DNA of 64,000 nucleotides, taken from NCBI GenBank assembly GCA_020073005.1, contig JAIQFX010000051.1:732-64731 (forward strand), written 5' to 3'. Within the stretch, counting starts at the first letter, position 1. Every line of letters begins with the position of its first letter. Below the pieces are notes generated by a model. It saw nothing but the letters and a program-made list of their open reading frames with translations. It was not told where the DNA came from and searched no databases. Both the position numbers and the translations under genes were made by a program. The stretch comes from Terriglobia bacterium (GTDB lineage Bacteria; Acidobacteriota; Vicinamibacteria; Vicinamibacterales; CAVVIG01). Below are positions 241 through 62,604 of the stretch, piece by piece.

Positions 241-385
241 GGTGCCGGGTGCGGCGTACCTGGTGCCATGCGGGGTGCGGGGTGCCGCGTGCGGCGTCCC
301 GTACACAGTGCGGCGCACCCGGCACTAGCCTGAGGCACCCGGCACGGCACCCAGCACTTCAGCACCAGGCACCCAGCACCCGCCG
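241..385. repeat. Inverted arrays of G-rich heptamers (GGTGCSG-like on the left, complementary CACCCRG-like on the right), intergenic
   Basis: Left part: ggtgccg ggtgcgg ... ggtgcca ... gtgcggg gtgcggg. Right part: cacccgg cac ggcaccc agcac ... accaggc acccagc accc. Together they can fold as a long imperfect hairpin between two genes. Confidence 0.7.
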
Positions 386-2593
386 ATGTCCCGCCCCCTC
401 CGATATACGTTCATTCTGATACTGGCGGCTCTTGGCACCGGCCTGGCGGCCGTAGGCGGATGGCGGTACGCGCGCGCGTCGGCGCCCGTCAGCGGCCCGA
501 TCGTCATCATCTCCATCGACACGCTGCGCGCCGATCATCTCCCGGCGTACGGCTACCAGAAGGTCAAGACGCCGGCGATCGACGCGCTGGCCGCCGACGG
601 CGTCGTGTTCGAGCGCGCGTACTCGCACGCGCCGCAGACGCTGCCCGCGCACGCCGCGATCCTCTCGGGCCTGCTGCCCTTCGAGCACGGCGTCCGCGAC
701 AACATCGGCTTCACGGTGAAGACCGGCGAGCGGCTCCTGCCGCAGATGCTCCGCGAGCGCGGGTTCACGACCGGGGGCGTCGTCTCGGCGTTCGTCCTGC
801 GCAAGGACACCGGCATCAGCCAGGGCTTCGATTTCTTCGACGGCGAGATGCCGCCGGCCACGCCCGATCAGCCGATCGGCTCGGTCCAGCGCGACGGCGC
901 CGTGTCGGAAGCGATCGCGGAACGCTGGCTCGCGTCGATCGGCACGTCCCGCGCGTTCCTGTTCCTGCACCTCTACGAGCCGCACAAACCGTACGCGCCG
1001 CCGGAGCGCTACGCGCAGTTCGCGCCGTACGACGGCGAGATCGCGTACAGCGACGAGATCGTCGGCCGGCTCATCCGCTACCTGAAATCGCATCAGCTGT
1101 ACGACCGATCGACGATCGTGCTGCTGTCCGATCACGGCGAGGGCCTCGGCGATCACGGCGAGCAGGAGCACGGCCTGTTCGTCTACGACGAAGCGATCCA
1201 CGTGCCGCTGATCATCAAGCAGGAAAGCAACGTCGGCGCGGGCCGCCGCGTGACGGGCCTCGTCCAGCACATCGATCTGGTGCCGACGATTCTCGATCTC
1301 GTCAAGGCGCCGATTCCCGGCAACCTGCGCGGCCGCTCGCTCAAGCCGGTCCTCGACGGCACGGGACCGCTCGCCGAGCCGTCCGTCTACTCCGAAGCGC
1401 TCTACGCCCGGTATCACTTCGGCTGGAGCGAGCTGACGGCGCTGACCGACGACCGCTATCGTTTCATCAAGGCGCCGCACGAAGAGCTCTACGACCTGCA
1501 GCGCGATCCGCACGAGCGCGAGAATCTGGCGGGCGATCGCGTGCAGGCGCGACAGGCGCTGCGCGCCGCGCTGGATCGTCTCGCCGCCGGCGCCGCGATT
1601 CATGCGCCGGCCGAAGTCTCGGCCGACGCGCGCGAGCGGCTGCAGGCGCTCGGCTACGTCGGCGCGCAGACCGAGATCGCGACCGCGCCCGGCGAGACGC
1701 TGCCCGATCCGAAAGACAAGCGGCAGATTCTCGAGACCTACCGCGCGGCGGTCGACCTGGCGGGCGAACGCAAATGGCCGCAGGCGATCGCGCTGCTTCA
1801 GCAGATCCTGCGCGAGGATCCCGGGATGGCGGACGTCTGGAGCCAGCTCGCCGGTTTTGCGGGGCGTCTCGATCGCATGGATCTCGTCGTCGACGCCTAC
1901 AAGCACTACATCGAGCTGAAGCCGTCGGAGCCCGGCGGCTATCTCGGCGCGGCCTCGGCGTTTTTCAAGCAGCGCAAGCTCGAGGACGCGCGGGCGCACG
2001 CCGCGCTCGCCGCCGACGTCGCCTCCGATCACGACGTCCGGTCGCGGGTGGCCGCGCACGAACTGCTCGCGCGCCTCGCCCTCGCCCGGCACGACGCCGA
2101 TGACGCGCGACAGGAAGCCCAGCTCGCGCACGAGGCGGATCCGAAGCTGCCCATCGTTCCGTACATCGACGCGCGCCTGCTCTACGATCAGGGAAAATTC
2201 GGGGACGCGCTCCCGCTCTTCGAGCGCGCGCTCGCCGATCAGCAATCCGGCGGCAGTCCGCTGGCCGAGCTGCACTACTACGCGGCGGACACGTTCGGGC
2301 GCCTCGAGCGATATCCCGACGCCGAAGCGCAGTTCACCGCGGAGCTGCGCGACTTCCCGCAGAACTCGCGCGCGCGCGGCGGATTGGCGATGCTCTACCA
2401 GGCCAACGGTCAGACCGACGCCGCGAATCGCGCCATCACCGACATGATTCGCGTGGCGCCGACCCCCGAGTCCTACGCGCTCGCCGCGCGCCTCTGGACG
2501 ATGTTCGGTGACCGGCAACAAGCCGATGCCATCCGCGCGGACGCGCGACGGGCGTTCGCCGACACGCCGCGACGCGCCGCCAACGCGCGCTGA
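386..2593 (+). CDS. Membrane-anchored sulfatase-like (alkaline-phosphatase superfamily) enzyme fused to a C-terminal TPR domain, paralog 1 of 4
   Basis: 735-aa ORF with an ATG start and N-terminal hydrophobic anchor [17 protein letters not shown]. Motifs [31 protein letters not shown] and [18 protein letters not shown]. Linker [10 protein letters not shown]...DPKD is followed by a TPR-like C-terminal half. Confidence 0.85.
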
Positions 2594-2605
2594 CGCGGAA
2601 CCACG

Positions 2606-4807
2606 GTGGGAAAAGAATCCTCCTCTCGTTTCAGTGTCCTCCGTGGTGTCGCCTTTCTTCTCGTCGCAGCTCTCGTAACGACGGTCGCAGTCTTCGTTTT
2701 CCGGAGCCGCGGCGTGCAAGCCGACCTTCGGCCGATCCCCAATCAAAACGTCCTGCTCATCACCATCGACACGCTTCGCGCCGACGCGCTCGGCAGCTAC
2801 GGCGGACAGGCGTCGACGCCCGCGCTCGATCGTCTGGCCGCCGGCGGCGTGCGGTTCGATTTCGCGCACGCGCACGCCGTCCTGACGCTGCCTTCGCATA
2901 CGAGCATCCTCACCGGCCGGTACCCGTTCCAGCACGGCGTGCGCGACAACAGCGGCTACCGCCTCGCGCCGGACGCGCGCACGGCGGCGACGATCCTGAA
3001 GCGCGCCGGCTACGCGACGGCGGCGTTCGTCGCCGCGTTCCCGCTCCACTCGCGCTTCGGGTTGAACCAAGGCTTCGACGTGTACGACGACCGCTTCGGC
3101 GAGACGCGCGCCCCGACCGAGTTCGTCATGCCCGAGCGCCCGGCGACGACGGTCGTCGCGCTCGCGCGCGAGTGGCTCGCCGCGCGGCACGATCGTGCGT
3201 TCACCTGGGTCCACGTCTTCGAGCCGCACGCGCCGTACCGCCCGCCGCCGCCCTACGACGCGCAGTACGCCGCGCGCCCGTACTACGGCGAGGTCGCGGC
3301 GGCCGACGCGGCGCTGGCGCCGCTGCTCGACGATGTCCGCCGGTCGGCGCAGCCGACAGTGGTCATCGTCACGGGCGATCACGGCGAGGCGCTCGGCGAT
3401 CACGGCGAGGACACGCACGGCATCTTCGCGTACGAGTCGACGCTCAGGATTCCGCTGATCATCGCGGAGCTCGGCGGGACAGGTCCGGCTGAAGCCGGAC
3501 GCCACGATAACAGTCGGGTCCGGCTTCAGCCGGACGACGGCGAAGTCTCGAGCGTCGCCGCGCGTCACGTCGACATCCTGCCGACGATCCTCGACGCGGT
3601 CGGCCAGGCGATTCCGTCCGATCTCCCGGGCCGCTCGCTGCTCTCCGCCGCCGAGCGCCGCTCGGCGGCGGCGCCGCGCACGTCGTACTTCGAGGCGATG
3701 TCCGGCATGCTGAACCGCGGCTGGGCGCCGCTCACGGGCGTGCTCGCCGATCGCGACAAGTACATCGACGTGCCGATCCCCGAGCGGTACGAGCTCGCGA
3801 GCGATCCCGCTGAAGCCTCGAACCTCGCGGGCCGCGCGCCGGAGCGCGATCGCACGCTCGCCGCGAGCCTTCGCGCGTTCCAATCGGAGCTGCCGGGCCA
3901 GCGGCGTCCGGAAGATCCGGACGCCGCGGCGCGGCTGCGCGCGCTGGGGTACGTGAGCGGCGACGCGCCGATCAAGCCGCGCTACACCGACGCGGACGAC
4001 CCGAAGACGCTCGTCGGCCTCGACCAGGAAATCCACCGCGGCGTCGACCTGTTCGTCGCGAAACGCTTCGCCGACGCCGTGCAGGTGTACGAGGGCGTCA
4101 TCGGCCGCAGGCCGGACATGGCCATCGCGTACCGCCATCTCGCGTTCGTGCGGTGGGAGTCGGGCAACGTCGCGGCGGCGATCGCCGTGCTCGAGCGGGC
4201 GCGCCAAGCGGGCGTCGCGCACGGCGGCATCACGTCGCAGCTGGGCGCGTATCTCGCGGAAGCCGGCCGCGCCTCCGACGCCGTCCGCCTGCTGCAGCCC
4301 GTGGCCAGCGCCGCGGCGCCCGACATCGACGCCCTCAACGCGCTCGGCATCGCCTACGCGCGGAGCGGACGGGCCGGCGAGGCGCGCGCCGTGTTCGAGC
4401 GGATGCTCGCGCTGAATGCGGAAAGCGCGATGGCGATGGAGAATCTCGGCACGCTGGATCTGGAGCGCAACGATCTGCACAGCGCCGGCAGACACTTCGC
4501 TGACGCCGTCCGCGTCGATCCGTTTTCGTCACAGGCCCAGGCCGGCATGGGCGTCGTCTCGCTGAAGACCGGCGACCGCCGATCGGCGATCGCGGCGTGG
4601 ACGAAGGCCGTCGAGCTCGACGCCACCAACTACGACGCGATGTACAACCTCGCCATGGCGCTCCTGGGCGACAAGCAGGCGGCGGCCGCGCGTCCCTATC
4701 TCGAACGATTTCTCCGCTCGGCGCCCGCCGCGTTTTACGAAAAAGACCTGCGGGAAGTCGCGGCGCTGCTCCAGCGCCTGCCTCAGGACGCCCGGGAAAA
4801 ACGCTAA
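2606..4807 (+). CDS. Sulfatase-like/TPR fusion protein, paralog 2 of 4
   Basis: 733-aa ORF starting with GTG at 2606 (exact start uncertain). Anchor FLLVAALVTTVAVFVF. Motifs LLITIDTLRADALGSYGG, LTLPSHTSILTG and VTGDHGEALGDHGEDTHG. Linker ARLRALGYVSG...DDPKT is followed by TPR-like repeats. It carries the in-frame palindromic insert at 3484-3535. Confidence 0.85.
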   Translation: MGKESSSRFSVLRGVAFLLVAALVTTVAVFVFRSRGVQADLRPIPNQNVLLITIDTLRADALGSYGGQASTPALDRLAAGGVRFDFAHAHAVLTLPSHTSILTGRYPFQHGVRDNSGYRLAPDARTAATILKRAGYATAAFVAAFPLHSRFGLNQGFDVYDDRFGETRAPTEFVMPERPATTVVALAREWLAARHDRAFTWVHVFEPHAPYRPPPPYDAQYAARPYYGEVAAADAALAPLLDDVRRSAQPTVVIVTGDHGEALGDHGEDTHGIFAYESTLRIPLIIAELGGTGPAEAGRHDNSRVRLQPDDGEVSSVAARHVDILPTILDAVGQAIPSDLPGRSLLSAAERRSAAAPRTSYFEAMSGMLNRGWAPLTGVLADRDKYIDVPIPERYELASDPAEASNLAGRAPERDRTLAASLRAFQSELPGQRRPEDPDAAARLRALGYVSGDAPIKPRYTDADDPKTLVGLDQEIHRGVDLFVAKRFADAVQVYEGVIGRRPDMAIAYRHLAFVRWESGNVAAAIAVLERARQAGVAHGGITSQLGAYLAEAGRASDAVRLLQPVASAAAPDIDALNALGIAYARSGRAGEARAVFERMLALNAESAMAMENLGTLDLERNDLHSAGRHFADAVRVDPFSSQAQAGMGVVSLKTGDRRSAIAAWTKAVELDATNYDAMYNLAMALLGDKQAAAARPYLERFLRSAPAAFYEKDLREVAALLQRLPQDAREKR
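3484..3535. repeat. Palindromic GTCCGGCTKMAGCCGGAC element, double-arm copy, inside the paralog 2 CDS
   Basis: gtccggctgaagccggacgccac (3484-3506) is the reverse complement of the 23-mer at 38202-38224 and 62582-62604. The second arm gtccggcttcagccggac lies at 3519-3535. It is translated as ...PAEAGRHDNSRVRLQPD... Confidence 0.85.
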
Positions 4808-7277: not shown

Positions 7278-9204
7278 AAACGAAGAAAGGGACCTTTCTC
7301 TCCGTGTCCTCCGTGTCCTCTGTGGTGATTTCTTTCTTGGTCGGAGCGCTCGCTTTAGCGCAGTCGCCGCCGCCAAACGTCCTCCTCATCACCATCGACA
7401 CGGTGCGGGCCGATCATCTCGGCGCGTACGGTTACACGAAGGGCGCAACACCGGCGATCGATAGGCTCGCGCGCGAGGGCGTCCGCTTCGCCGATGCCAC
7501 GTCGCAGGCGCCGTTGACCGGACCGGCGCACGCCGCGATCCTCACCGGGCAGTATCCGGCGCGGCTCGGCGTCCGCGACAACGCCAGCACGCCGATTCCC
7601 GCCGGCACGTCAACGCTCGCGACGATGTTCAAGGGGCGCGGGTACAGGACGGGCGGCTTCGTCGGCGCGTTCATCCTGGGCCCGGAGTACGGCTTCGCGC
7701 AGGGCTTCGACACGTTCGACGCGACGTTCGCGCGATTCAACGCCGGGATGAAGCTGCAGGCGCAGCGCCGCGGCGGCGAGGTGACCGACGCCGCGCTCAA
7801 GTGGATACGGGGAGACAGCCACCAGTTCTTCGCGTGGGTGCACCTCTACGACGCGCACGCGCCGTACGACGCGCCCGCGCCCTTCCGCGCGCGCTTCGCG
7901 GCGGCGCCGTACGACGGCGAGGTCGCGTACGTCGACAGCTGCATCGCGAAGATCGTCGCGGCCCTCGAACAATCGGGCCAGCTCGAGCGCACGCTGATCG
8001 CCGTCGTCGCGGATCACGGCGAGGGACTGGGCGATCACGGCGAAGCCGAGCACGGTCTGTTCCTCTACGAATCCGTGCTGCACGTGCCGTGGATCATGCG
8101 GCTGCCCGGCCACGACGCCGCGGGATCGGTCGTCAAGACGCAGGTGCGCGCGATCGACGTGCTGCCCACGCTGGCGGCAATCGCGGGCGTGACGCCGCCG
8201 AAGACGGACGGCTCTATCCGAAGTGGCACTTCGGCTGGAGCGAGCTGAAGTCGGTCCGCGTCGGCGACTGGAAGTACATCGACGCGCCGAAGCCGGAGCT
8301 GTACGACATGCGCGCGGACGCCGGTGAAGCGCGCAACGCCATCGACGCGCGCGGCCCGCTCGCCGGCGGTCTGTCCGCGGAGCTCGGGAAAATCCAGACG
8401 GGATTCGGCGCCGCCGCCACCGTCACGGATGCGCCGCAGCCCGATCCGGAAACGCTGGCGCGGCTGCGCAGCCTCGGCTACGTCGGCATCGCGTCGCCGT
8501 CGCCGGGCGTGCGCGGTCCCGATCCGAAGGACATGGTCCCGACGCTCGAGACCTTCAAGACCGGAATCAGCCGCGCGATGGACGCGCTCGGGCGCGGCAA
8601 CGCGGACGCCGCGATCGCGCAGCTGAAGACGCTCGTCGCGATGAACGATCGTTCGTACGAGCTGCACCTGTTTCTCGGCGACGCGTACGCGGCCAAGCGC
8701 CAGTACGACACGGCGCTCGGCGAATACGCCGCCGCGCGGATGCTGAACGCGCACAGCAGCGCGCCGGCCATCTCCGAGGCGCGCGTCTATCTGGGGCAGG
8801 GCAATCTCGCGCGCGCGCTGCAGCAGATCGACGCGGCCGAGCGCCTGGATCCGACGAGCAGCGAGGTGCCGCTCGTCCGCGGCGAGATTCTGGAGAAGCA
8901 GGGCCGCGGTCCGGACGCGCTCGCGCAGTACGAGATTGCCGTCCGCACGAACGGCTCGGACGCGCAGGCCCGCGTCAGCCTCGCCAGCCTGGCGCTGCAG
9001 CTGCGTCAGTACGATCTGGCCCGGCCGCAATTCGAGAAGCTCGTGCAGATGGGCTATCGTCCGTCGCGGATGCACTTCGGGCTCGCGCAGATCGCCGAGG
9101 CGCAGGGCGACGTGAAGAAAGCGATCGCCGAGTATCGTCTGGCCCTGAAGCTCGAACCGTCGCTCAAGGAAGCCAGCGCGGCGTTGTCACGGCTCAGTCA
9201 ATAG
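7274..9204 (+). pseudogene. Sulfatase-like/TPR fusion, paralog 3 of 4, broken by an internal deletion plus frameshift near 8210
   Basis: Frame A (7274-8248) reads MKTKKG...LLITIDTVRADHLGAYGY...LTGPAHAAILTG...[17 protein letters not shown]...GVTPPKTDG and then hits nonsense and a stop. The frame offset by 2 nt (-1 frame) resumes at about 8212 with LYPKWHFGWSEL...ARLRSLGYVG...TPR and runs to 9204. About 22 residues conserved in the paralogs (RSL...YSE) are missing at the junction. Confidence 0.8.
7299..7327. repeat. Single arm of the CTCCGTGTC-type repeat, encoding part of the signal peptide (LSVSSVSSVV)
   Basis: cctccgtgtcctctgtggt at 7308-7326 is the exact reverse complement of accacagaggacacggagg at 48651-48669. 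Confidence 0.8.
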
Positions 9205-12107: not shown

Positions 12108-12130
12108 GTCCGGCTAAAGCCGGACGCCAC
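12108..12130. repeat. Intergenic copy of the GTGGCGTCCGGCTTCAGCCGGAC palindromic element (1 mismatch)
   Basis: gtccggctaaagccggacgccac is the reverse complement of the 23-mer family with a single loop change. Confidence 0.8.
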
Positions 12131-12136
12131 GGAACA

Positions 12137-46065: not shown

Positions 46066-46070
46066 GAACA

Positions 46071-48735: not shown

Positions 48736-48743
48736 AATCCCTT

Positions 48744-52291: not shown

Positions 52292-53077
52292 CTAATAGTG
52301 GACGGCGACCAGGAATAGTCCTTCGGCCGGTGCGGTTTGTCCGGCGGCCGTGCGATCTCGCGACGCGAGCACGTCGTTCATCCAGTCCACCGGCCGCCGT
52401 CCGCGGCCGATCTCGACGAGCGTGCCGACGATCGTCCGCACCATGTGGCGGAGGAAGCCGTCGCCGGTGATTTCATACATCACCAATGCGGAGTGAGGAG
52501 TGCGGAGTGCGGAGTGCAGACCGGCTTCCCCAATCCGCATTCCGCACTCCTCAATCCGCGATGTGACGATCGTCCGCACCGTCGACTTCACCTCGCTCTT
52601 CGGTCCCTGGAACGCCGCGAAGTCGTGCGTGCCCTTGACCAGCGCGGCCGCGACCTGCATCGCGGCGACGTCGAGCGCGCCGTAGACGTGCCACGCGTAG
52701 TGGCGCTCGAACGGATCGAGGACATCGGCGTTCCAGAGGCGGTAGCGGTACGTCTTGCCGCGCGCATGGAACCGCGCATGAAAATCGTCCGGCGCGTCTT
52801 CCGCCGACAGCACGCGCACGGCGGGCGGCAGGTTCGCGTTGAGCGAGCGCTGCACGACGTCGGCGGTGACGGCGCGCGCGAGCGTGAACGACGCGACCTG
52901 TCCACGCGCGTGCACGCCGGCGTCGGTGCGGCCGGCGCCGTGCACCGTGACGTCGCGCTCGTCGAGCAGCTTCAGCGCGTCCTCGAGCTGTCCCTGGATC
53001 GACACGCCAGTCGCCTGCCGCTGCCAGCCGACGAAGTCGGTGCCGTCGTAGGCGAGCGTGATCTTGAAGGTGGGCAA
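52292..53077 (-). CDS. truA: tRNA pseudouridine(38-40) synthase, carrying an in-frame repeat insert
   Basis: 261 aa. Motifs FKITLAYDGTDFVGWQRQ, GAGRTDAGVHARGQV (catalytic Asp), FHARF and GFLRHMVRTIVG. It carries an extra ~20 aa at 52487-52559. Confidence 0.9.
   Translation of the reverse strand: MPTFKITLAYDGTDFVGWQRQATGVSIQGQLEDALKLLDERDVTVHGAGRTDAGVHARGQVASFTLARAVTADVVQRSLNANLPPAVRVLSAEDAPDDFHARFHARGKTYRYRLWNADVLDPFERHYAWHVYGALDVAAMQVAAALVKGTHDFAAFQGPKSEVKSTVRTIVTSRIEECGMRIGEAGLHSALRTPHSALVMYEITGDGFLRHMVRTIVGTLVEIGRGRRPVDWMNDVLASRDRTAAGQTAPAEGLFLVAVHY
52487..52559. repeat. Inverted GCGGAKT heptamer arrays inserted in-frame in truA
   Basis: gcggagt gaggagt gcggagt gcggagt gc ... gcattccgcactcctcaatccgc. 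The stretch 52541-52559 is identical to 60831-60849. Translated (minus strand) ...RIEECGMRIGEAGLHSALRTPHSAL... Confidence 0.85.
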
Positions 53078-53660: not shown

Positions 53661-56101
53661 CAATTCGAACTTCTCACTTTTCCGTTTTCACTTTTCAGTG
53701 TGTCGTCGAAGAGTTTCATGATCCGCCTGTACTCGTCCGCCCAGCTCGTCTCGTCCTCGAACCCGTGATCCTCGACCGGGAACATCGCGACGGACCAGTT
53801 CTCCTTGCGCAGCTCGATCAGGCGCTGCACCAGACGCACGCTGTCCTGGAAGAGCACGTTGGTGTCCACCATGCCGTGGCAGATCAGGAGCGCGCCCTTC
53901 AGGCCCTGCGCGAAGTAGATCGGCGAGCTCTGCCGGTACGCCTCCGGATCGTTCTGCGGCTCGTTCAGAATGTTCGACGTGTAGCCGTGGTTGTAATGCG
54001 CCCAGTCGGTGACGGGCCGCAGCGCCGCGCCGGCCGCGAACGTGTCGGGCGACGTGAACATCGCCATCAGCGTGATGAAGCCGCCGTAGCTGCCGCCGTA
54101 CACGCCGATGTGCTTCGCGTTCACCTTCTGCTTCTCGACGAGATACTTGGCGCCGTCGACGACGTCGTCCAGATCCTTGCCGCCCATGTGGCGATAGATT
54201 GCCGTCCGCCAGTCGCGGCCGTAGCCCGAGCTCGCGCGGTAATCGGGATCGAGCACGACATAGCCCTTCGACGCGAGGACGTTGTGGAACATGTACTCGC
54301 GGTAGTAGCTCGCCCAGTACTTGTGCGCGTTCTGCGCGTAGCCCGCGCCGTGCACGAAGACGACGGCCGGCGCCGACGGATCGCGTTTGGCGCCCATCAT
54401 CTCGGGCGTGAACAGCCGCGCGTAGACGTCGACGCCGTCGCGCGTCTTATAAGTAATGAGCTGCGGATCGATCCACCTGTGCGACCGCCACTCGTCGGTC
54501 GGCGTCGTCGTCACCTGCTTCATCGCCGCGCCGGCCCCATTGGGTGTGTTCGGCATCAGGTACACCTCGTGCGGCTTCGTGCTCGCCGAGTAGATGATGC
54601 CGAACGTCGTGTCGTCGGGCGAGACGACGCCCGCGCTGCCACCCGTCAGCGACGTCAGCTTCGTGCGCGCGCCGCCGTCAACCGACATTGAATAGATGTG
54701 GCGCTCGCCGGGATGCACTTCCGTGCTCGTGATGTAGAACTTCTTCTTGTCCGGCGACAAGCTGAGCGATTCGATCTCCCACTTACCCTGCGTCAGTTGA
54801 CGCGCGGCGGGGTGCTCCGCTGTCGCGTCGAGCGTGTAGAGATGCATCCACGCGTCGCGCTCGGACAGGAACCAGATGTGTTTCTGGTCCGGCAGAAAGC
54901 CGAGTGACGGATCGTTGGGCCCGAAGCCGCCGATCTCGCGCACCCACGCGTCGTCGTGCAGCGTGTCGAGGACGCGCGTCTTGCCGGTGTCGGGATCGAC
55001 CGCCGCCAGCCACCGATCTTTATTGTCGTTCGCGCGCACGTGCGCGACCGTCAGCGATCCGTCCTCGGAGATTTGCGGCATCGCCCAGCGCACCTCGCGC
55101 GGTTGCGGTTTGGCCTCCGTGGCATCCGGCTTCAGCCGGACCGTTCCTGCGAAACCGCCGTCCGCCCACACGGTCTTGCCCGTCTCGAGATTCATGATCG
55201 CGAGCGTCCGCTTGTCCTGCGAATCGCCGACGTAGGTCCGCGCGGGAATGTCTTCGGTGTAGCTCGTCGCCGTCACGTAGTTCGGGACGTTCGGCCGCTT
55301 CGCCGCGTCGGCGCGCTCGACGACGAGGATCATCACGTGCGTGCCGTCGGGCGACAGTTGCAGATCGCCGGCCGACTGCCGGTCCGCGAGCTCGAGCTTC
55401 GGCAGCGCGTTCGCCTTGTCCTTCTCTTCGGCCTTCTTCTTCTTCTCGGCTTCGGTGCGCGTGTGCTCGATGAGCTGCGTCTCTTCCGTCTTCACGAACT
55501 TCTGGCTGTCGGTGTCGCGCGCGTCGCGCTTGCGCGGCTCGATGTCGGTGAGCTGGAGGATGCCGCCGGCCATCGCGCCGTCGAGAGAAACGAGATACAA
55601 ATTGTTCTCGCGCGTGAACGTGACCGCCGTTTCATGGCGCGCCCACCGCGGGTTCGATTCATTGCCCATCGTGCGCGTGATCTGACGTCGCGCGCCGGAC
55701 ACGGAATCCAGCAGGACGATGTCGCCGCGATCGACGGCCAGCACTCGGCGGTGCGCCGCGTCCCACGCGCCGTTGACGGGCGGCGCGCTGCGCCGTTCTT
55801 CATCCGACAGCTTCCGGAGATCGCTCCCGTCGCGCGACACGACCCACGTCGACGCCTCGTCGTCCTGCGGCCGCCGCCACTCGAAGTAGAGCCGCGCGGA
55901 ATCGCCGGACCAGCGCAGGCCGGTCGGCGGATAGCCGACGAGCTTCGGGCCGCGCATCACGCTGTCGACCGTCAGCTCGAAGCCGGCGGGCTTCGACGGC
56001 GGGGCCGCGCCGGCGGACGAGGTTCCCGCCAGGTGCGCCGAGGCGGCGGTCAGAGCCAGCGCGGCGAGGCCGCAGGTCACGCGCGAAGCAGAAATGTGCA
56101 T
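53660..56101 (-). CDS. S9-family serine peptidase (prolyl oligopeptidase / dipeptidyl-peptidase type), exported
   Basis: 813 aa from the ATG at 56101, preceded by GAGGAA. It has a signal peptide and a beta-propeller-like N-terminal part. The C-terminal hydrolase has GVYGGSYGGF (GxSxGG), HGMVDTNV and VEDHGF. The upstream 114 codons of ORF 56443 were rejected. Confidence 0.85.
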   Translation of the reverse strand: MHISASRVTCGLAALALTAASAHLAGTSSAGAAPPSKPAGFELTVDSVMRGPKLVGYPPTGLRWSGDSARLYFEWRRPQDDEASTWVVSRDGSDLRKLSDEERRSAPPVNGAWDAAHRRVLAVDRGDIVLLDSVSGARRQITRTMGNESNPRWARHETAVTFTRENNLYLVSLDGAMAGGILQLTDIEPRKRDARDTDSQKFVKTEETQLIEHTRTEAEKKKKAEEKDKANALPKLELADRQSAGDLQLSPDGTHVMILVVERADAAKRPNVPNYVTATSYTEDIPARTYVGDSQDKRTLAIMNLETGKTVWADGGFAGTVRLKPDATEAKPQPREVRWAMPQISEDGSLTVAHVRANDNKDRWLAAVDPDTGKTRVLDTLHDDAWVREIGGFGPNDPSLGFLPDQKHIWFLSERDAWMHLYTLDATAEHPAARQLTQGKWEIESLSLSPDKKKFYITSTEVHPGERHIYSMSVDGGARTKLTSLTGGSAGVVSPDDTTFGIIYSASTKPHEVYLMPNTPNGAGAAMKQVTTTPTDEWRSHRWIDPQLITYKTRDGVDVYARLFTPEMMGAKRDPSAPAVVFVHGAGYAQNAHKYWASYYREYMFHNVLASKGYVVLDPDYRASSGYGRDWRTAIYRHMGGKDLDDVVDGAKYLVEKQKVNAKHIGVYGGSYGGFITLMAMFTSPDTFAAGAALRPVTDWAHYNHGYTSNILNEPQNDPEAYRQSSPIYFAQGLKGALLICHGMVDTNVLFQDSVRLVQRLIELRKENWSVAMFPVEDHGFEDETSWADEYRRIMKLFDDTLKSENGKVRSSN
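53675..53698. repeat. CTGAAAA-family heptamers forming the 3' end of the peptidase CDS
   Basis: cactttt ccgtttt cactttt cag is translated on the minus strand as ...LKSENGKVRSSN*. Confidence 0.7.
55119..55141. repeat. Single-arm copy of the GTGGCGTCCGGCTTCAGCCGGAC element inside the peptidase CDS (1 mismatch)
   Basis: gtggcatccggcttcagccggac is translated on the minus strand as VRLKPDAT. Confidence 0.8.
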
Positions 56102-56216
56102 GGATTCCTCAAAAAAACGGGGCCTAAGTATACAATTGCCTGAACCATATTTCCCCGCCGGACGTCTACTGATCAGACCAGCGACAGATTTTCCTTTTCT
56201 TGATGGAGCGTCAGAA

Positions 56217-57857
56217 ATGCGTCTGTTCCACACCATCCGCCGCACGTCAGTCGCCGTGATCGCCGCGGCGATCACCCTGGCTGCACCGTCCGTTTTCGCG
56301 CAGAGCGAACAGTCGCGATTCGCGAGCAGCCTCGAAGCCGCCGCGGCGCAGGCTGCCGCGCAATCGGGCGGCGACATCGTCCGCCGGATCTCGGTTGACG
56401 ATGCGGTCAAGCTCGCGCTCGAACAGAACCTCGGCATCCGCATCCAGCGCCTCGATCCGCAGATTCAGGACATGGGCGTGGCGCAAGCCCAATCCGCGTG
56501 GGCGCCGAACTTCACCTCGGCCCTCCAGCGAAACTCGCAGGTCCAGCAGTCGACGAACGCGCTCGCCGGCGGCGCGACGAGCGTGGACAACGGCACGCTG
56601 GGCACGCAGATTGGCCTGAACCAGACGCTGCCGTGGGGCGGCAGCTACTCGGGCACCTTCAACAACTCCCGCGTGACGACCTCGAACTTCTTCGCCGCCT
56701 ACAGTCCGCAGCTGAACTCGACGGTGAACGTGCAGTACACGCAGCCGCTCCTGCGCAACTACTCCATCGATCAGATTCGCCAGCAGGTCGCCAGCAGCAA
56801 GAAGACCCGCGACCTCTCGGACATCCAGCTGCAGTCGGTGATCACCGGGACGCTGCGGGGCGTGAAGAACGCGTACTGGGATCTCGTCTACACGATCGAC
56901 AACCTCAAGGCGCAGCAGCAGTCGCTCGCGCTCTCACAGCAGTTCCTGAAGGACAACCAGAAGCGCGTCGAGATCGGCACGCTGGCGCCGATCGACATCG
57001 TCCAGGCGCAGGCCGAAGTCGCCGCCAACGAGCAGGGCGTCATCGTCGCGGACGCCGCGATCAAGCAGGCGCAGGATGCGCTGCGCGCGCTGGTACTCGA
57101 TCCGGGAGCGCCGGACTTCTGGAACATCGACTTCGAGCCGACCGACGCGGCGTCGTTCGCCGAGCGCGCGATCGACATCGACGCGGCGGTCCGCAACGCG
57201 CTGGACAAGCGGTCCGACCTGCACACGGCGAAGAACAGCCTCGAGCAGAGCGACATCAACCTGAAGTTCTTCGGCAACCAGATCAAACCGGACGTCAACG
57301 CGCAGGTGAACTACATCGCAGCGGCGTCTGGCGGGCAGCCGCTGGCGAGCCAGGTGAACATTCTGGGACAGACCGCGAAGGTGCCCGAGCGCGGGTACGG
57401 CACCGTGTTGGGCGACGTGCTCAAAGCGTCGTACCCGACCTGGACCGTCGGCGTGCAGATAGGCTATCCCCTCGGCCTGAACATCGCCAAGGCGAACCTC
57501 GCGAGAGCACGGCTGCAGTACGAGCAGTCGCAGTCGCAGCTCAAGAACCTCGAGATGCAGGTGGCCACACAGGTGCGGACCGCGGCGCGCAACGTCCAGA
57601 CCAACCAGAAGCGCGTCCAGTCGGCGAAGGCGTCGCGCGAGCTGCAGGAGAAGAAGCTCGAGGCCGAGGAGAAGAAGCTCGCGGCCGGCATGTCGCAGAG
57701 CTTCTTCGTCTTCCAGGCGCAGCGCGACCTCGCGCTCGCCCGCACGGCGGAGATTCAGGCGATTGCCGACTACAACAAGTCGCTCGTCGATTTCGAAGCC
57801 GTGCAGGAAGTCCCGCTCAACGGCGGCGGCGGGGGAATTACAATCGCCGGGCGCTGA
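56217..57857 (+). CDS. TolC-family outer-membrane efflux protein
   Basis: 546 aa from the ATG at 56217, with GGAG upstream. Signal ...LAAPSVFAQ. Two repeated halves have a long-helix pattern (ALEQNLGIR..., ...RVEIGTLAPIDIVQAQAEVA..., ...SQSFFVFQAQRDLALA...). Confidence 0.8.
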   Translation: MRLFHTIRRTSVAVIAAAITLAAPSVFAQSEQSRFASSLEAAAAQAAAQSGGDIVRRISVDDAVKLALEQNLGIRIQRLDPQIQDMGVAQAQSAWAPNFTSALQRNSQVQQSTNALAGGATSVDNGTLGTQIGLNQTLPWGGSYSGTFNNSRVTTSNFFAAYSPQLNSTVNVQYTQPLLRNYSIDQIRQQVASSKKTRDLSDIQLQSVITGTLRGVKNAYWDLVYTIDNLKAQQQSLALSQQFLKDNQKRVEIGTLAPIDIVQAQAEVAANEQGVIVADAAIKQAQDALRALVLDPGAPDFWNIDFEPTDAASFAERAIDIDAAVRNALDKRSDLHTAKNSLEQSDINLKFFGNQIKPDVNAQVNYIAAASGGQPLASQVNILGQTAKVPERGYGTVLGDVLKASYPTWTVGVQIGYPLGLNIAKANLARARLQYEQSQSQLKNLEMQVATQVRTAARNVQTNQKRVQSAKASRELQEKKLEAEEKKLAAGMSQSFFVFQAQRDLALARTAEIQAIADYNKSLVDFEAVQEVPLNGGGGGITIAGR

Positions 57858-57963
57858 AACTGAAAAGTGAAAACAGAAAACTGAAAACTGAAAAGTAGAG
57901 ACCTTTTCTTTTTCGCGGTAGTCTTCACTTTTCGGTTTTCATTTTTCGGTTTCAAGTTTCAAA
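57855..57963. repeat. Long inverted CTGAAAA heptamer arrays between the TolC-like gene and GT2
   Basis: ctgaaac tgaaaag tgaaaac agaaaac tgaaaac tgaaaag ... gtcttcacttttcggttttcatttttcggtttcaagtttca. The stretch 57920-57933 is identical to 46088-46101. Confidence 0.85.
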
Positions 57964-57977: not shown

Positions 57978-58775
57978 GTGCCCCGGCTTTCCGTCACGGT
58001 CATCACCAAGAACGAAGCGGCGGACATCGACGCGGCCCTGACGTCCGTCGCGTGGGCCGACGAGATCGTCGTCGTCGATTCGCACAGCACCGACGACACC
58101 GTGGCCATCGCACGGCGGCACACCGACCGCGTCGTCGTCCGCGACTGGGCCGGCTACATCGATCAGAAGAACCACGCCGCGTCGCTCGCGAGCCATGACT
58201 GGATTCTGTCGCTCGACGCCGACGAGCGCGTCACGCCGGAGCTCGCGGCCGAGATCACGCAACTGATCTCCAGTGAGCCGCTCGCGGCCGGATACCGGAT
58301 CCCGCGCGTGACGTGGCATCTCGGCCGATGGATCCGGACGACCGACTGGTATCCCGACCATCAATTGCGCCTCTACGATCGGCGCCGCGCGCGATGGACC
58401 GGCGCGTACGTGCACGAGGCGGTGACCGTCGACGGCGCGATTGGTCACCTGCGCGGCCAGCTGCAGCATTACGCGTTCCACGACATCGCGGATCATCTCG
58501 AGACCATCGATCGCTATTCGACCTTCGCCGCGCGGCAGATGCGCGAGGCCGGAAGACGCGGCGGCCTGCTGCAGATGATCGGCCATCCGCCGCTCGCGTT
58601 CCTGCGCAACTATCTCGCGCACGGCGGCATCCGCGACGGCGCGCCCGGCTTCATCATCTCGGCGCTGAACGCGTACTACGTGTTCCTCAAGTTCGCAAAA
58701 CTGTGGGAGTTGCAGTCAACGCTCGTGAATCACGAAGACACGAAGAGCACGAAGGACACGAAGCAACCAACATGA
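57978..58775 (+). CDS. Family 2 glycosyltransferase
   Basis: 265 aa with a GTG start. Motifs LSVTVITKNEAADIDAALTSV..ADEIVVVDSHSTDDT and ILSLDADE (DxD-like). The C-terminal tail ...HEDTKSTKDTKQPT is encoded by a repeat arm. Confidence 0.8.
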   Translation: MPRLSVTVITKNEAADIDAALTSVAWADEIVVVDSHSTDDTVAIARRHTDRVVVRDWAGYIDQKNHAASLASHDWILSLDADERVTPELAAEITQLISSEPLAAGYRIPRVTWHLGRWIRTTDWYPDHQLRLYDRRRARWTGAYVHEAVTVDGAIGHLRGQLQHYAFHDIADHLETIDRYSTFAARQMREAGRRGGLLQMIGHPPLAFLRNYLAHGGIRDGAPGFIISALNAYYVFLKFAKLWELQSTLVNHEDTKSTKDTKQPT

Positions 58776-58811
58776 GCTCTTCGTGTTCTCCGTGGCCTTC
58801 GTGCCTTCGTG
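58731..58811. repeat. Inverted CACGAAG-type repeat spanning the GT2 stop and the GT2-GT4 gap
   Basis: cacgaagacacgaagagcacgaaggacacgaag ... cttcgtgttctccgtggccttcgtgccttcgtg. Confidence 0.8.
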
Positions 58812-58827
58812 ATACATAGTCTCGTCA

Positions 58828-59976
58828 ATGTTTTCCTTGCATGTCGACACGGCCCGCACGTGGCGCGGCGGACAGAATCAGGTGCTCCTGACCGTCAACG
58901 GCCTGCGCGCGATCGGGCAGCGCGCGGCGCTCGTGGCGCACCCCGACGGCGAGCTCAGGAAGCGCGTCGAGGAAGGCCTCGAGCTGATTCCGATCGCGCC
59001 GAAGACCGAGATGGATCTGACGGCCGGCTGGCGCTTCGCCCGGCTCCTCAAGAAACTCGCGCCCGACGTCATTCACGCGCACGATCCGCATGGCGTGGCG
59101 ATGGCGTCGCTCGCGTTGTCGCTCGGAGCATCGTCGTCCACAAAGAGCGGGTCCACGGCGCGCGTGCCCGCGCTGGTCGCCTCGCGCCGCGTGGACTTTC
59201 ATCTCAAGGGCAATTCGTTCTCGCGCTGGAAGTACCGGCAGGTGGACTGCTTCATCGCCGCGTCCGAGGCGATCCGGCAGATGCTCGTCGCCGACGGCGT
59301 GCCGGCCGACCGCACCGTCACCGTCCACGAGGGCATCGACGTCGACCACGTGCTCGCCGCGCCGCCGGTCAACGTGCACGAAGCGTTCTGGCTGCCGCAC
59401 CATGCGCCCGTCGTCGGCAACGTCGCCGCGCTCGTGCCGCACAAGGGCCAGCGGTACTTGATCGACGCGGCGCATCTCGTCGTCCAACAGATCCCCGACG
59501 CGCGATTCATCATCCTCGGTGAAGGCGAACTGCGCGAGCACCTCGAGCATCAGGTGAAAGAGCATCACCTCGAGAAGCACGTCCTGCTGCCGGGCTTCCG
59601 CACCGACGTGCTCGGCTGCATCAAAGGCTTCGATCTGTTTGTGATGAGCTCGGTGACGGAAGGCCTGGGGACGTCGCTGCTGGACGCGATGGCGTGCGCG
59701 CGCCCGATCGTCGCCACGCGCGCCGGCGGCATTCCGGAAATCGTCGAGGACGAGGTGAACGGCGTGCTCGTCCCGCCGCGCGACGCGCACGCGCTCGCCG
59801 ACGCCATCATCCGCCTGTTGAAGGACGAGGGGACGCGGCAGCGGATGGGCGACGCCGGCCTCGCGCGCGTGCGCGAGCGATTCACCGTCGATCGGATGGT
59901 CGCCGAGACCGCCGGAGTCTACGAAAGAGTCGTCACGCTCCCTCGCCAAGTCTCGAGTGTGAAGGCTCACGTCTGA
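58828..59976 (+). CDS. Family 4 (GT-B) glycosyltransferase
   Basis: 382 aa. Motif ...FIILGEGELREHLE...HVLLPGFRTDV...FVMSSVTEGLGTSLLDAMACARPIVATRAGGIPEIVEDEVNGVLV (E-x7-E region). Confidence 0.85.
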   Translation: MFSLHVDTARTWRGGQNQVLLTVNGLRAIGQRAALVAHPDGELRKRVEEGLELIPIAPKTEMDLTAGWRFARLLKKLAPDVIHAHDPHGVAMASLALSLGASSSTKSGSTARVPALVASRRVDFHLKGNSFSRWKYRQVDCFIAASEAIRQMLVADGVPADRTVTVHEGIDVDHVLAAPPVNVHEAFWLPHHAPVVGNVAALVPHKGQRYLIDAAHLVVQQIPDARFIILGEGELREHLEHQVKEHHLEKHVLLPGFRTDVLGCIKGFDLFVMSSVTEGLGTSLLDAMACARPIVATRAGGIPEIVEDEVNGVLVPPRDAHALADAIIRLLKDEGTRQRMGDAGLARVRERFTVDRMVAETAGVYERVVTLPRQVSSVKAHV

Positions 59977-60851
59977 AGAGCGGCGGCGTCCGCTTTCAGC
60001 CTTCGCACTTCAGCCTTCAGACTCGAGACGTTTCTATGCCTCATCCCCAAGTGGCAGAGCGAGAAGTCGTACTTCACGGGATCGTCCGGGTCGAGGCGGC
60101 GCAGTGACGCCGTGATGTCGCGCGCCATCTTCCAGCCCGGGCTCGTGTACGTCGTCAGCCGCAGGCAGCGCCCGACGCGAATGACGTGCGTGTCGAGCGG
60201 CACGATCAGCTTCGACGGCGACACGCGCCGCCAGACGCCGAGATCGAGCGCGTCGCGCCGCACCATCCAGCGCAGAAACAGATTCAGCCGCTTGCATCCG
60301 CTGCCCTTCGACGGCTGCGCAAAAAAGTACGGCACGCCGGGCGCGCGGTTCGAGAAGCGCGGCACGCGTCCGTAGGCGGACCGGAGATCGAGCGCGAGCG
60401 CGCGCGTCGAGAAACTCTCGATCGCGTTCTCGATGTCCTCCGCGGACGGATCGTAGCCTTCGAGAAAGAAGCCTTCGACCGATCCCGAGCGGTCGAGCAT
60501 CTGCTTCAGCTGCCAGACGAGCGCGACGAGATCGGGCCCGCGCGTCCAGCGATGCACGATGGACGCGAACGGCTTCGCGTCGCGCCGTGGATCGAATCGA
60601 CGGACGTACGCGGCCGGCTCCGGTCCCATGACGGCGACCACGCGCTCGATCGACTGCAGCACGCTCATCACGCGGCCGAACGCCAGCGCGCCGGCCACGA
60701 ACCCGACGATCTCGCGGTCGTCGTTTCGTTCGAATCGCCGGACGATCTGAATCGGATCGATCGCCGAATCGGGGTAGTTGAACGACCGGTACAGGCCGTC
60801 CAGCGCCGGTTTCAACTCTTCAATCCGCAATCCGCACTCCTCAATCCGCAA
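59967..60851 (-). CDS. TIGR02757/DUF2400-like protein (function unknown)
   Basis: 294-aa ORF. The family call is from memory of the conserved pattern (...DPIQIVRRF...DREIVGFVAGALAFGRV..., ...RLNLFLRWMVRRD..DLGVW...). The first ~11 codons (MRIEECGLRIEE) come from a heptamer repeat, so the true start is uncertain. Confidence 0.5.
   Translation of the reverse strand: MRIEECGLRIEELKPALDGLYRSFNYPDSAIDPIQIVRRFERNDDREIVGFVAGALAFGRVMSVLQSIERVVAVMGPEPAAYVRRFDPRRDAKPFASIVHRWTRGPDLVALVWQLKQMLDRSGSVEGFFLEGYDPSAEDIENAIESFSTRALALDLRSAYGRVPRFSNRAPGVPYFFAQPSKGSGCKRLNLFLRWMVRRDALDLGVWRRVSPSKLIVPLDTHVIRVGRCLRLTTYTSPGWKMARDITASLRRLDPDDPVKYDFSLCHLGMRHRNVSSLKAEVRRLKADAAALQT
60816..60850. repeat. Single array of GCGGAKT-family heptamers (complement strand shown) at the 5' end of the minus-strand gene
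   Basis: ctcttca atccgca atccgca ctcctca atccgca. The stretch 60821-60849 matches 52531-52559 with 1 mismatch. Confidence 0.85.
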
Positions 60852-61533
60852 TGAGTATTATTCACCCATGCGGAAGCTCGCGCTGAAAGGACTCGCCGCC
60901 CTCATCGCGCTCGTCGCAATCGTCGCTCTCGGCGCGTACCTCTACCTGCGGCGCTCGCTCCCGCAATTCGACGGGACGACGACGGTCGCCGGCATCAGCG
61001 CGCGCGTCGACATCATCCGCGACGCGGACGCGATCCCGCACATCTTCGCCGCCAACAGGCTCGACGGCCTCTTCGGCCTCGGCTACGTCCACGCGCAGGA
61101 TCGCCTGTGGCAGATGGAGATCCAGCGGCGCATCGGCTTCGGCCGCCTGTCGGAGGTGCTCGGCGCCACCGCGCTGCCGCAGGATCGCTTTCTCCGCACC
61201 ATCGGATTCGGCCGCGCCGCGCGGGCCGCGTGGGCGTCGACGCCGGACTGGGCGAAGCAGCGGGTGAGCGCGTACGTCGCCGGCGTGAACGCGTTCATCG
61301 CCACGCATCATGGCGCCGGGCTGCCACCTGAGTTCTCACTGCTCCGCTTCGAGCCCGAGCCGTGGAAGGGCGAGGACGTCGTCGTCTGGGTGAAGATGAT
61401 GGCGTGGGATCTGAGCGGCAACTATTCGTTCGAGTTGCTGCGGCACGATCTCATACAGGCGGTGGGCGAAGCTCGAATGGCCCAGCTGCTGCCGCCGTAC
61501 CCAGCCAACGGGCTGAGTATTCTCGGAAAGAGC

Positions 61534-61610
61534 GGAACCACGGAGGACACGGAGGCAAGGAGCAATGAAATGTACTCTCCCTCCGTGTCCTCAGTGTCCC
61601 CGGTGGTTTC
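61534..61610. repeat. Inverted GGACACGGA-type hairpin element inside the acylase CDS
   Basis: ggaaccacggaggacacggagg ... cctccgtgtcctcagtgtccccggtggtttc. Translated GTTEDTEARSNEMYSPSVSSVSPVV, about 32 residues upstream of the Ser of SNNW. Confidence 0.85.
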
Positions 61611-62563
61611 TCTTTCGTGGACCCACGCGTTCGCGTCAGCGCTGTCCTTCGGCGACGCGACGACGCGCGACTTCCTGCGCGGTGGCGCCACCGAAGGCCT
61701 GGGCTCCAACAACTGGGTCGTCGACGGCACGCTGACCGCGAGCGGCAAGCCGCTCCTCGCCAACGATCCGCATCTCGGCACGCGGCTGCCATCGACGTGG
61801 TATCTCGCGCATATCTCCGCCGGCGACTTCGATCTCATCGGCGGCACCTTCCCTGGCACGCCCGCCGTCGCGCTCGGGCGGAACAAATACATCGCGTGGG
61901 GCGCGACCAACGTCGCCGCGGACGTCGAGGATTTCTATCGCGAGCGTCTCGACGCGACCGGGACGTTCTACGAGTTCCGCGGCGCGCAGGAGCCCATCAC
62001 GGTGATCCCCGAGACGATCGTCGTGAAGGGCGCCGCGCCGGTGCACGTCGACGTGCGCGTGACGCGCCACGGCCCGCTCTGGTCCGACGCCGTCAACGCG
62101 AACAACGCCGAGTCGAAGACGACTCCGAAGCCGGCGCCGCTCGAGCCGCTCGCGTTCCGCTGGACGGCGCTGGATCCGGACGATGGCACGCTCGCGTCGT
62201 TCCTGAAGGTGAACGAGGCGCGCAACTGGACGGAATTCACCGACGCGCTGAAGGGCTACGTCGTCCCGTCGCAGAATTTCGTCTACGCCGACGTCGACGG
62301 CCACATCGGCTACTACGCGCCGGGACACATTCCAGTCCGCGCGTCAGGCGACGGCTCGCGTCCCGCGGACGGCTGGTCCGGCGACGCGGAGTGGACCGGC
62401 TGGGTGCCGTTCGACGATCTGCCGCACACGTTCGATCCGCCGGACCACGTCATCGTCACGGCGAACAATCGTCCGGTCGCGCCGCCGTACAACCCGATGC
62501 TCGGCCTCGAGTGGGCCGAGCCGTACCGCGCGCAGCGCATCACCGACCTTCTCGATCAATTGC

Positions 62564-62604
62564 GTGACGTTCAAACGTCACGTGGCGTCCGGCTTCAGCC
62601 GGAC
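62564..62604. repeat. Hairpin gtgacgtt-ca-aacgtcac followed by GTGGCGTCCGGCTTCAGCCGGAC, inside the acylase CDS
   Basis: The 27-mer cacgtggcgtccggcttcagccggacc is identical to the hemC copy but is read here as SRGVRLQPD. Confidence 0.85.

Follow-up and report, generated by a model that had tools for sequence, protein, structure and literature searches.

Tandem-unit foldback repeats between and within genes of a Vicinamibacterales contig and its relatives

We analysed a 64,000-nucleotide (nt) stretch of the metagenome contig JAIQFX010000051.1 (assembly GCA_020073005.1, positions 732 to 64,731; hereafter, the window), focusing on the short tandem repeats that lie between many of its genes and inside a few of them. 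The gene map was built from codon usage and was backed by Pfam matches and by the gene calls on the public contig. The repeats share one plan, in which an array of tandem 7-nt units (less often 8-9-nt units) is followed by a short variable core and then by the reverse-complement array, a layout that we call a foldback. They are listed in Table 1, together with a second, non-tandem class that resembles the repetitive extragenic palindromic (REP) elements. An earlier interpretation made from the letters alone (hereafter, the sequence-only reading) had called the host Acidobacteria-like, and the genomes nearest to the window's TruA were indeed Vicinamibacterales metagenome-assembled genomes (Acidobacteriota subgroup 6), with at most 67% identity.

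Table 1 Repeat elements of the window and their gene context. MFE, predicted minimum free energy in kcal/mol; aa, amino acids.
Position	Strand	Element	Layout	Gene context	Remarks
241-385		irregular (GGTGCSG)n/(GCACCCS)n	hairpin	entire gap, from stop at 238-240 to ATG at 386	MFE -84.6
7299-7327		9-nt foldback family, CTCCGTGTC units, end GTGGTG	single arm	directly after stop at 7277	
16791-16818	+	(CAGCCAC)x4	direct array	in frame in sulfatase+TPR gene	peptide SATSHQPPAT
22217-22267		(TRTCAGC)n	hairpin	between two minus-strand genes	end abuts the upstream gene's stop
36362-36462		(TGGTCAT)-type	hairpin	between Cytochrom_C_asm (PF01578) gene and hemA	GC 0.45
38853-38952	+	(CGACYAA)x13	direct-only array	provides the hemC stop codon	ends 2 nt before next ATG; predicted unstructured (MFE 0)
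46049-46125		(CTGAAAA)/(TTTTCAG)	hairpin	fills gap between convergent aminotransferase and RseP genes	
48641-48744		9-nt foldback, AACCAC[GGAGGACAC]n ... GTGGTT	hairpin	between cdsA and dxr	MFE -68.5
52487-52559	-	(GCGGAKT)/(AATCCGC)	hairpin	in frame in truA	
53669-53698	-	(CTGAAAA)-type	single arm	codes for C-terminal tail of S9 peptidase	
57855-57963		(CTGAAAA)n ... (TTTTCRG)n	hairpin	between OEP gene and GT2 gene	
58726-58816		(CACGAAGRA)n foldback	hairpin	5' arm codes for GT2 C-terminal tail; 3' arm in gap before GT4	
59950-60029		TTCAGCC units	hairpin	at overlapping 3' ends of convergent GT4 and DUF2400 genes	
60816-60850		(AATCCGC)	single arm	in or beside short gap between DUF2400 and penicillin amidase genes	
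61534-61610	+	9-nt foldback	hairpin	in frame, penicillin amidase segment upstream of GSNNW motif	
38139-38231	+	REP-like palindrome (GTCCGGCTKMAGCCGGAC + GCCAC)	inverted pair	in frame in hemC	adds 31 aa; MFE -55
3483-3535		REP-like palindrome			core starts 3485 and 3520
12108-12131		REP-like palindrome			core start 12110
18336-18355		REP-like palindrome			core start 18338
55124-55143		REP-like palindrome			core start 55126
62587-62606		REP-like palindrome			core start 62589

The arrays of the window were checked by Tandem Repeats Finder, by direct reading and by a scan for inverted repeats. All those named in the sequence-only reading were recovered, and so were the three exact matches it had drawn between distant copies, namely 7308-7326 (reverse-complemented) with 48651-48669, 46088-46101 with 57920-57933, and 52541-52559 with 60831-60849, the last being an exact 19-mer common to the truA copy (52487-52559) and the single arm at 60816-60850. 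The TTCAGCC hairpin was absent from its list. The sequence of array, spacer and reverse-complement array, which it had given as typical, held for nine of the listed loci, which are true hairpins, but not for two direct-only arrays and three single arms. The array at 241-385 is irregular, with 68-86% matches. Most elements are AT-richer than their surroundings, as had been proposed (GC content 0.33-0.64, compared with about 0.67 for the window), the exceptions being 241-385 (0.75) and 16791-16818 (0.71).

The number of arrays is far above chance. The window has 10 period-7 arrays, compared with a mean of 0.41 and a maximum of 2 in 100 dinucleotide-preserving shuffles, and 7 period-9 arrays, compared with a shuffle mean of 0.72. 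The repeats are not an assembly artefact, because an independent assembly (L002) was 100% identical across 10,194 nt, including the hairpin at 36362-36462, and the same TruA insertion is encoded by a second contig (P0001). Searches of Rfam at gathering and permissive thresholds returned only spurious microRNA-hairpin matches far below threshold.

The elements typically span the distance from a stop codon to the next start codon, and several of them provide the stop codon themselves; that of the OEP gene, for example, is the first TGA of the hairpin at 57855-57963. The density of hairpins with periodic arms per 10 kb was 10.8 in convergent gaps and 6.4 in co-directional gaps, compared with 0.08 in coding sequence (CDS), so that the gap density is ~80-130 times that of CDS and the elements are predominantly intergenic. 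The density in divergent gaps was 0, and none of the three large divergent (promoter-type) gaps of the window contains an element. The earlier suggestion that the elements sit at operon junctions is statistically borne out by these densities.

The elements had also been said to invade coding sequence, and this was confirmed for the genes of TruA, penicillin amidase (acylase) and the sulfatase, for two C-terminal tails and, in the REP-like class, for HemC. The copy in truA (PF01416) lies in a segment that is probably a beta-hairpin region of the fold. This segment is 17 residues longer than its counterpart in Escherichia coli TruA (alignment with 1DJ0). Among 31 aligned relatives of TruA (249-318 aa), all length variation is confined to this one site, the insertion loop, the segment measuring 33-37 aa in outgroups and in many Vicinamibacterales. 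The loop peptides DCGLRI... and ...SAIRNPQSA are the translated (GATTGCG)n and (AATCCGC)n, and other relatives have in the same loop TEDTEDTED (from the 9-nt family), unrelated repeats, or remnants only. At the truA site of relatives, near-perfect DNA hairpins of 105, 228 and 282 nt (predicted -69, -116 and -160 kcal/mol) have their outer arms in common and differ in their inner cores. The penicillin amidase segment upstream of the GSNNW motif is, for an enzyme of this family, probably the spacer removed on maturation; in a relative with ~90% identical flanks, an unrelated hairpin was found at the same position. The in-frame copies occupy permissive loops of TruA, penicillin amidase and HemC, all of which keep their full Pfam domains across the insertion.

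The GC content at third codon positions (GC3) was 0.41-0.71 in the in-frame insertions, compared with 0.70-0.89 in the host genes. A period of 7 is not divisible by 3, so that once a unit is repeated at least three times each of its trinucleotides falls in every frame, and therefore only stop-free units fit inside genes. The units found there (AATCCGC, CAGCCAC and the 9-mers) are stop-free, CAGCCAC at 16791-16818 being so on both strands, and in the S9 peptidase tail (53669-53698) the unit that would put TGA in frame reads GGA. A statistic on stop-free units in CDS was dropped as circular. The units recur at intergenic and genic sites, their GC3 is atypical and at least one family is dispersed, in agreement with the earlier claim that these are DNA elements and not protein motifs. 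A different palindrome was seen in the TruA loop of P0040, P0047, P0048, P0081, P0083, P0085 and L004 (10511-10612), translating to ...LRQAQGAPSVSRGG... or ...RPELVEGR..., and TruA homologues with this palindrome have a precomputed Pfam match to PF10105, which may be caused by the translated repeat and not by a real domain.

We compared 0.94-1.07 Mb of Vicinamibacterales DNA around truA with outgroup DNA that the same query had retrieved. The window has 15.6 period-7 arrays per 100 kb, the Vicinamibacterales DNA 8.9 and the outgroups 1.4. The enrichment of Vicinamibacterales over outgroups, which extends to periods of 8-9 nt, is thus ~6-fold, and arrays with a reverse-complement partner numbered 4.2 per 100 kb in Vicinamibacterales, compared with 0.7. 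Period 7 accounts for 24 of the 45 paired arrays and is followed by periods 9, 8 and 6. The seven families of the sequence-only reading are too low a count: the 115 arrays of the Vicinamibacterales loci include 74 distinct heptamer units, which indicates a continuum of at least 74 units across relatives. The repeats are clade-wide and partly cross-phylum, and are not peculiar to the window's genome.

We then compared gene junctions among five syntenic contigs with TruA proteins 74-83% identical. At cdsA|dxr, a hairpin is present in all five relatives and comes from two unrelated families, in three of them the 9-nt foldback, whose arms and flanks are conserved and whose loops are scrambled, and in the other two an unrelated (GGCTGGA)/(CCAGCCY) heptamer hairpin. 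At GT2|OEP, all four relatives compared have a heptamer hairpin beside a conserved flank, with differing units. The convergent rseP|aminotransferase gap contains heptamer hairpins in most relatives; in one lineage (L087 and L088), their place is taken by a perfect 23-bp hairpin of the classical type, bordered by runs of A and T. Junctions without elements also lack them in all relatives compared. Elements nested in the apex of another hairpin were found at the truA sites of L006 and L004, in Gemmatirosa, and in two metagenome contigs (L101 and L123). Sites that stay occupied while their sequence turns over are seen also in truA and the penicillin amidase gene, where a terminator is implausible, and we therefore favour insertion or growth bias at existing hairpins over site-specific function as the source of site persistence.

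The 9-nt family is dispersed, with conserved ends of the form (A/C)ACCAC-[N]GAGGACACGGAGG ... CCTCCGTGTCCTC-GTGGTT. It occupies three sites in the window and several contexts in relatives, including the truA loop of L086, and its ends are conserved in at least six contexts in the loci examined. An exact 20-mer of the family was found in at least 120 metagenome stretches, on contigs with a GC content of 32-76%. In the 80 loci examined there were 98 arm matches; 49 of them lay no more than 400 nt from a partner arm, and the elements so defined measure 73-294 nt. A related query matched 44 places on two megaplasmids of the cultured Gemmatirosa kalamazoonensis, and Bacteroides finegoldii has clean copies, for example between dnaN and an exonuclease gene; identical 20-mers are found in Gemmatirosa, Bacteroides and the metagenomes. 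Short plasmid matches in Rhodovastum and Halomarina lie inside CDS and were not counted, as they are perhaps due to chance or to protein-level similarity.

None of 40 distinct complete elements of the 9-nt family showed a target-site duplication. Their outer flanks are A-rich, followed by TT(G/T), so that the ends read TT(G/T)AACCAC ... GTGGTT, and flanks that are A-rich on the 5' side are therefore T-rich on the 3' side. We rejected the idea of a conserved cargo in the long foldbacks, as the interiors of 30 long forms are essentially unrelated between contigs. Of the hallmarks of miniature inverted-repeat transposable elements, the family has only the inverted ends and the size (70-300 nt), and differs from them in having neither a target-site duplication nor a conserved interior derived from an insertion sequence. 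In L101 and L123, metagenome contigs with GC contents of 0.32 and 0.54, the 9-nt arms enclose nested heptamer arrays, of AATTAGG/AGTGAGG units in one and of CCCCAAT/CCCTGAT/CCCCAGT units in the other. CCCCAGT is the classic unit of STRR1, one of the short tandemly repeated repetitive (STRR) sequences of cyanobacteria, a hint that low-GC organisms carry the 9-nt family together with STRR-type heptamers.

The two arms of a foldback are not equivalent. Among hairpins with periodic arms, the 5' arm was purine-rich in 36 and pyrimidine-rich in 4 (p = 2e-7), and non-periodic strong hairpins of the same genomes were purine-first in 33 cases and pyrimidine-first in 5. The corresponding numbers were 5 and 6 in the outgroups, 12 and 0 in Gemmatirosa, and 25 and 8 in the metagenome carriers. 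The polarity is a real property, because the measure is unchanged by reverse complementation; it holds on both strands.

The REP-like class has the palindrome GTCCGGCT[G/T][A/C]AGCCGGAC with a GCCAC tail. Its copies lie in convergent gaps and in frame within genes, with single copies in the S9 peptidase and penicillin amidase genes in addition to the inverted pair in hemC. The palindrome occurs 3.1 times per 100 kb in the Vicinamibacterales loci, compared with 0.23 in the outgroups. A unit that is itself an imperfect palindrome of 20-40 nt, a feature of REPs, is found only in this GTCCGGCTGAAGCCGGAC class and not in the tandem-unit foldbacks, and the class fits REP better than they do.

With a confidence only slightly above even, we read the tandem elements as DNA-level foldback repeats of the same kind as the STRRs of cyanobacteria and the inverted GGGAATC pairs of Xanthomonas. 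Array length would change by replication slippage, and a preference for 7-nt units is, according to the literature, general in bacteria. Entire foldbacks or single arms would be copied to new sites without target duplication, preferably into the apex of an existing hairpin, so that a site would stay occupied while its sequence turned over. The nesting, turnover and dispersal were observed directly; the copying process is putative. Selection would then clear the elements from promoter regions and from nearly all coding sequence, and they would persist directly downstream of genes and, where the unit is stop-free in every frame, as seen above, in a few permissive loops and linkers. Transcribed downstream of genes, they would most probably function as hairpins at transcript 3' ends (terminators, attenuators or stabilisers of the RNA), as has been argued for REPs. 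Such a role is plausible from their location, from the canonical terminator that replaces them at one gap and from the A- and T-rich flanks.

Several results weigh against this reading. Folding energies of the sense and antisense strands did not differ (19 hairpins, p = 0.60), with no excess of G-U pairs, and the unpaired arrays showed no strand bias relative to the direction of transcription (19 versus 23). A generic terminator scan found 16 sites, compared with 10.2 +/- 3.6 expected, which is no real enrichment. In the scanned 44-64 kb region, only one of about ten arrays fits a canonical intrinsic terminator (46071-46101, within the hairpin at 46049-46125), which leaves the case for termination weak. 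At cdsA|dxr, mismatches between the arms are common to orthologues, and therefore the arms are not being made symmetrical again all the time. Near-identical strains showed no difference in copy number (L087 compared with L088, and L002 with the window), so that slippage is slow or unproven here. The sites that are always occupied could also reflect function and not a bias towards hairpins. The DNA examined consisted of the 64-kb contig and fragments of relatives of at most 20 kb, in which a mobilising enzyme was neither identified nor searchable.

A broader version of the same idea, which we regard as speculative and rather improbable, would attribute the foldbacks of Acidobacteriota, Gemmatimonadota, Bacteroidota, Xanthomonas and cyanobacteria to one unrecognised process that does not depend on the repeat family. 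This process could be snap-back synthesis, in which a purine-rich repeat strand is produced first and then folds back to be copied, or the work of an unknown enzyme targeting hairpin apexes, either of which would fix the polarity, the nesting and the site occupancy. Among its products, the 9-nt AACCAC...GTGGTT element would be one that spreads horizontally. Such a single process, if true, would explain the decades-old puzzle of STRR origin.

The closest published parallel is the GGGAATC repeat of Xanthomonas (Rehm et al. 2015, PMC4692102), whose arrays often form convergent inverted pairs, near or overlapping stop codons, between ORFs (open reading frames) in the same or convergent directions, with a conserved gene context and varying length and sequence. 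The foldbacks described here are alike in having a GC-rich host, tandem 7-nt units and inverted pairs with the purine- or G-rich arm first, and in the variation found within one gene context in relatives (cdsA|dxr, GT2|OEP and rseP|aminotransferase). They differ in their dozens of unrelated units in place of one G-rich word, most of which cannot form quadruplexes, in their additional 8-9-nt units, in nested foldbacks of up to 282 nt, in the in-frame hot spots that recur in housekeeping proteins, and in belonging to another phylum. More generally, many bacteria have an excess of heptameric long simple sequence repeats, for which polymerase slippage is the proposed cause (Mrazek 2007, as cited in PMC4692102 and PMC4679880).

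The analogies drawn in the sequence-only reading, to STRRs (7-bp hairpin-forming intergenic repeats) and to Rickettsia palindromic elements (RPEs; in-frame palindromes), proved apt. STRRs comprise several families of 7-bp units that are intergenic and can form hairpins between co-transcribed genes such as hupS-hupL; the host here is an acidobacterium and not a heterocystous cyanobacterium. Heptamer repeats have been known in cyanobacteria since 1990, and their origin and function remain unexplained. The window's TGGTCAT unit (36363-36449) is a rotation of the STRR2 unit TTGGTCA. The overall resemblance of units to known heptamer words was barely above chance (12, compared with 7.1 expected, p = 0.045), and the idea of a heptamer vocabulary shared across phyla was not used, being marginal.

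REPs and RPEs form hairpins, lie between unidirectional or convergent ORFs, sometimes provide a stop codon, and cluster and nest; some RPE copies stand in frame within genes that remain functional, one of them encoding a pseudouridine synthase of R. conorii. The foldbacks share with them the location bias and the in-frame copies in intact genes (truA, hemC and the penicillin amidase gene). Unlike REPs, bacterial interspersed mosaic elements (BIMEs) and paired REPs (REPINs), their arms are tandem arrays, without a GTAG or CGTC tag and without a consensus element beyond the arms, and the tandem-unit architecture also sets them apart from the RPEs. The Foldback (FB) transposons of eukaryotes also have long inverted arms of short tandem repeats, are kilobase-sized and make target duplications. 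We liken the elements to them by analogy only, for the tandem-repeat arms of variable copy number around a variable middle; the elements are 70-300 nt long and showed no target duplication in 40 cases.

The TAACTGA repeats of Beggiatoaceae, Cyanobacteria and Bacteroidetes are direct, stand just upstream of start codons in a fixed orientation, and are suspected of horizontal spread, with no mechanism evident (MacGregor 2015, PMC4679880). They resemble the present repeats as a short-unit word common to distant phyla, and AAACTGA/CTGAAAA of the window is one base off; here, in contrast, inverted pairs downstream of genes dominate, and unpaired arrays have no orientation bias.

Among the alternatives, mobilisation of the REPIN type, in which REP pairs are moved in trans by a REP-associated (RAYT, IS200-like Y1) transposase acting on single-stranded hairpins, is unlikely. 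The location bias and in-ORF copies are the same as those of REPs, the absence of target duplications is what Y1 transposition predicts, the nesting and clustering are like those of REPIN clusters, and a true REP-like palindrome class is present in the window. The arms of the tandem-unit foldbacks, however, are not palindromes themselves, the ends are AACCAC/GTGGTT without a GTAG or CGTC tag, and 74 unrelated heptamer units would each require recognition.

Equally improbable, in our estimate, is the view that nothing here is mobile and that the elements are normal functional hairpins, either intrinsic terminators or attenuators, which arose where they now stand and have tandem units only as a by-product of stem growth by slippage. 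This view would agree with their exclusive position downstream of genes and absence from divergent gaps, with the canonical terminator that substitutes at an orthologous convergent gap, with the A-rich and U-rich arms of the CTGAAAA family, one copy of which was flagged as a terminator, and with the A-rich 5' and T-rich 3' flanks of the 9-nt family. It does not agree with the recurrence of identical, fixed-ended 20-mers across three phyla and a genomic GC range of 32-76%, nor with the in-frame copies in truA, hemC and the penicillin amidase gene, as termination inside these genes would do harm. Most of the hairpins also have no U-tract, the sense strand has no advantage, and idiosyncratic unit variants are common to paralogous copies, as seen for the 19-mers.

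We give very little weight to G-quadruplex or i-motif regulatory repeats, as proposed for GGGAATC in Xanthomonas and GGGGAYT in Nostoc. The polarity and location match those of the Xanthomonas repeats, and 241-385 contains several GGG/GGGG runs; most units, however, have no run of three or more G (CTGAAAA, CGACYAA, GCGGATT, TGGTCAT and CACGGAGGA, for example) and therefore cannot form four-tract quadruplexes. The same low weight falls on contingency loci, in which slippage-prone repeats would switch neighbouring genes (phase variation). Gain or loss of a 7-nt unit would change the reading frame, and some arrays extend into the ends of genes, but the arrays lie at 3' ends and not in promoters or 5' coding regions, their length is not polymorphic between near-identical strains or assemblies, and the flanking genes are housekeeping genes. 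Protein-level repeat motifs or metagenome assembly artefacts are next to negligible as explanations: some copies are translated to peptides with a period of 7 or 3 aa, which are seen again in homologues (DCGLRI..., SAIRNPQ..., TEDTED), but most are intergenic, codon usage is atypical, a given DNA unit is found in every frame and on either strand, and independent assemblies as well as finished genomes from cultured strains contain identical sequence.

The novelty suggested by the sequence-only reading holds in part. Heptamer over-representation and inverted heptamer pairs near stop codons in a GC-rich genome (Xanthomonas) have been published; our literature searches found no description of such repeats in Acidobacteriota or Gemmatimonadota, and exact repeat strings gave nothing relevant. 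What is new here is the lineage, the multiplicity of units, the nesting up to 282 nt, the hot spots in TruA and penicillin amidase, the quantified polarity and promoter avoidance, and a 9-nt foldback that is present in several phyla, has fixed ends and lacks a target duplication. An abundant soil lineage is thereby added to the known carriers of heptamer repeats. Any mechanism must explain the avoidance of promoter gaps, the purine-first polarity (absent in outgroups), the nesting in apexes, the occupancy of sites with turnover of sequence, and the in-frame hot spots in housekeeping proteins, and these regularities make the old open question more testable. Function and mobility are open to experiment, because the 9-nt family is present in the cultured Gemmatirosa kalamazoonensis and Bacteroides finegoldii.

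On the practical side, the stop-free arrays cause gene callers to predict ORFs that are too long or fused, interrupt metagenome assemblies and create spurious database peptides. Stop-free arrays were read through by gene callers in L084 (14389-14483), at the N-terminus of P0003 and in the window (60778-60867). The spuriously extended proteins include a Dxr of 418 aa in place of 392, a TruA of 284 aa and a penicillin amidase ORF that starts inside the AATCCGC arm, the start codon of this gene being at 60868. Read-through of this kind seeds protein databases with repeat peptides such as SAIRNPQ and TEDTED. Two contigs from other samples (L002 and L003) both terminate exactly at 38879, within the (CGACTAA)n array of 38853-38952, and we conclude that such arrays break short-read metagenome assemblies.

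Two further gaps showed features of a different kind. The gap that separates the divergent OEP and S9 peptidase genes (window 56081-56216) is repeat-free, is highly conserved at the nucleotide level across L084 and L086-L088 and contains ...GGCGGGGAAATATGGTTCAGGCAATTGTATACTTAGGCCCCG...; promoters, an operator or a small RNA may lie within it. In L087 and L088, this gap has an insertion with a REP-like palindrome and a 19-nt tandem duplication. The dxr|rseP gap, which measures 1 nt in the window, contains in L086 (9503-9545) and L087 (15423-15458) a direct-only, purine-rich (AGAAGGY)n array ending 1-2 nt before the rseP start. These arrays look like a stack of Shine-Dalgarno-like motifs and are reminiscent of the TAACTGA repeats that stand close to start codons in Beggiatoaceae.

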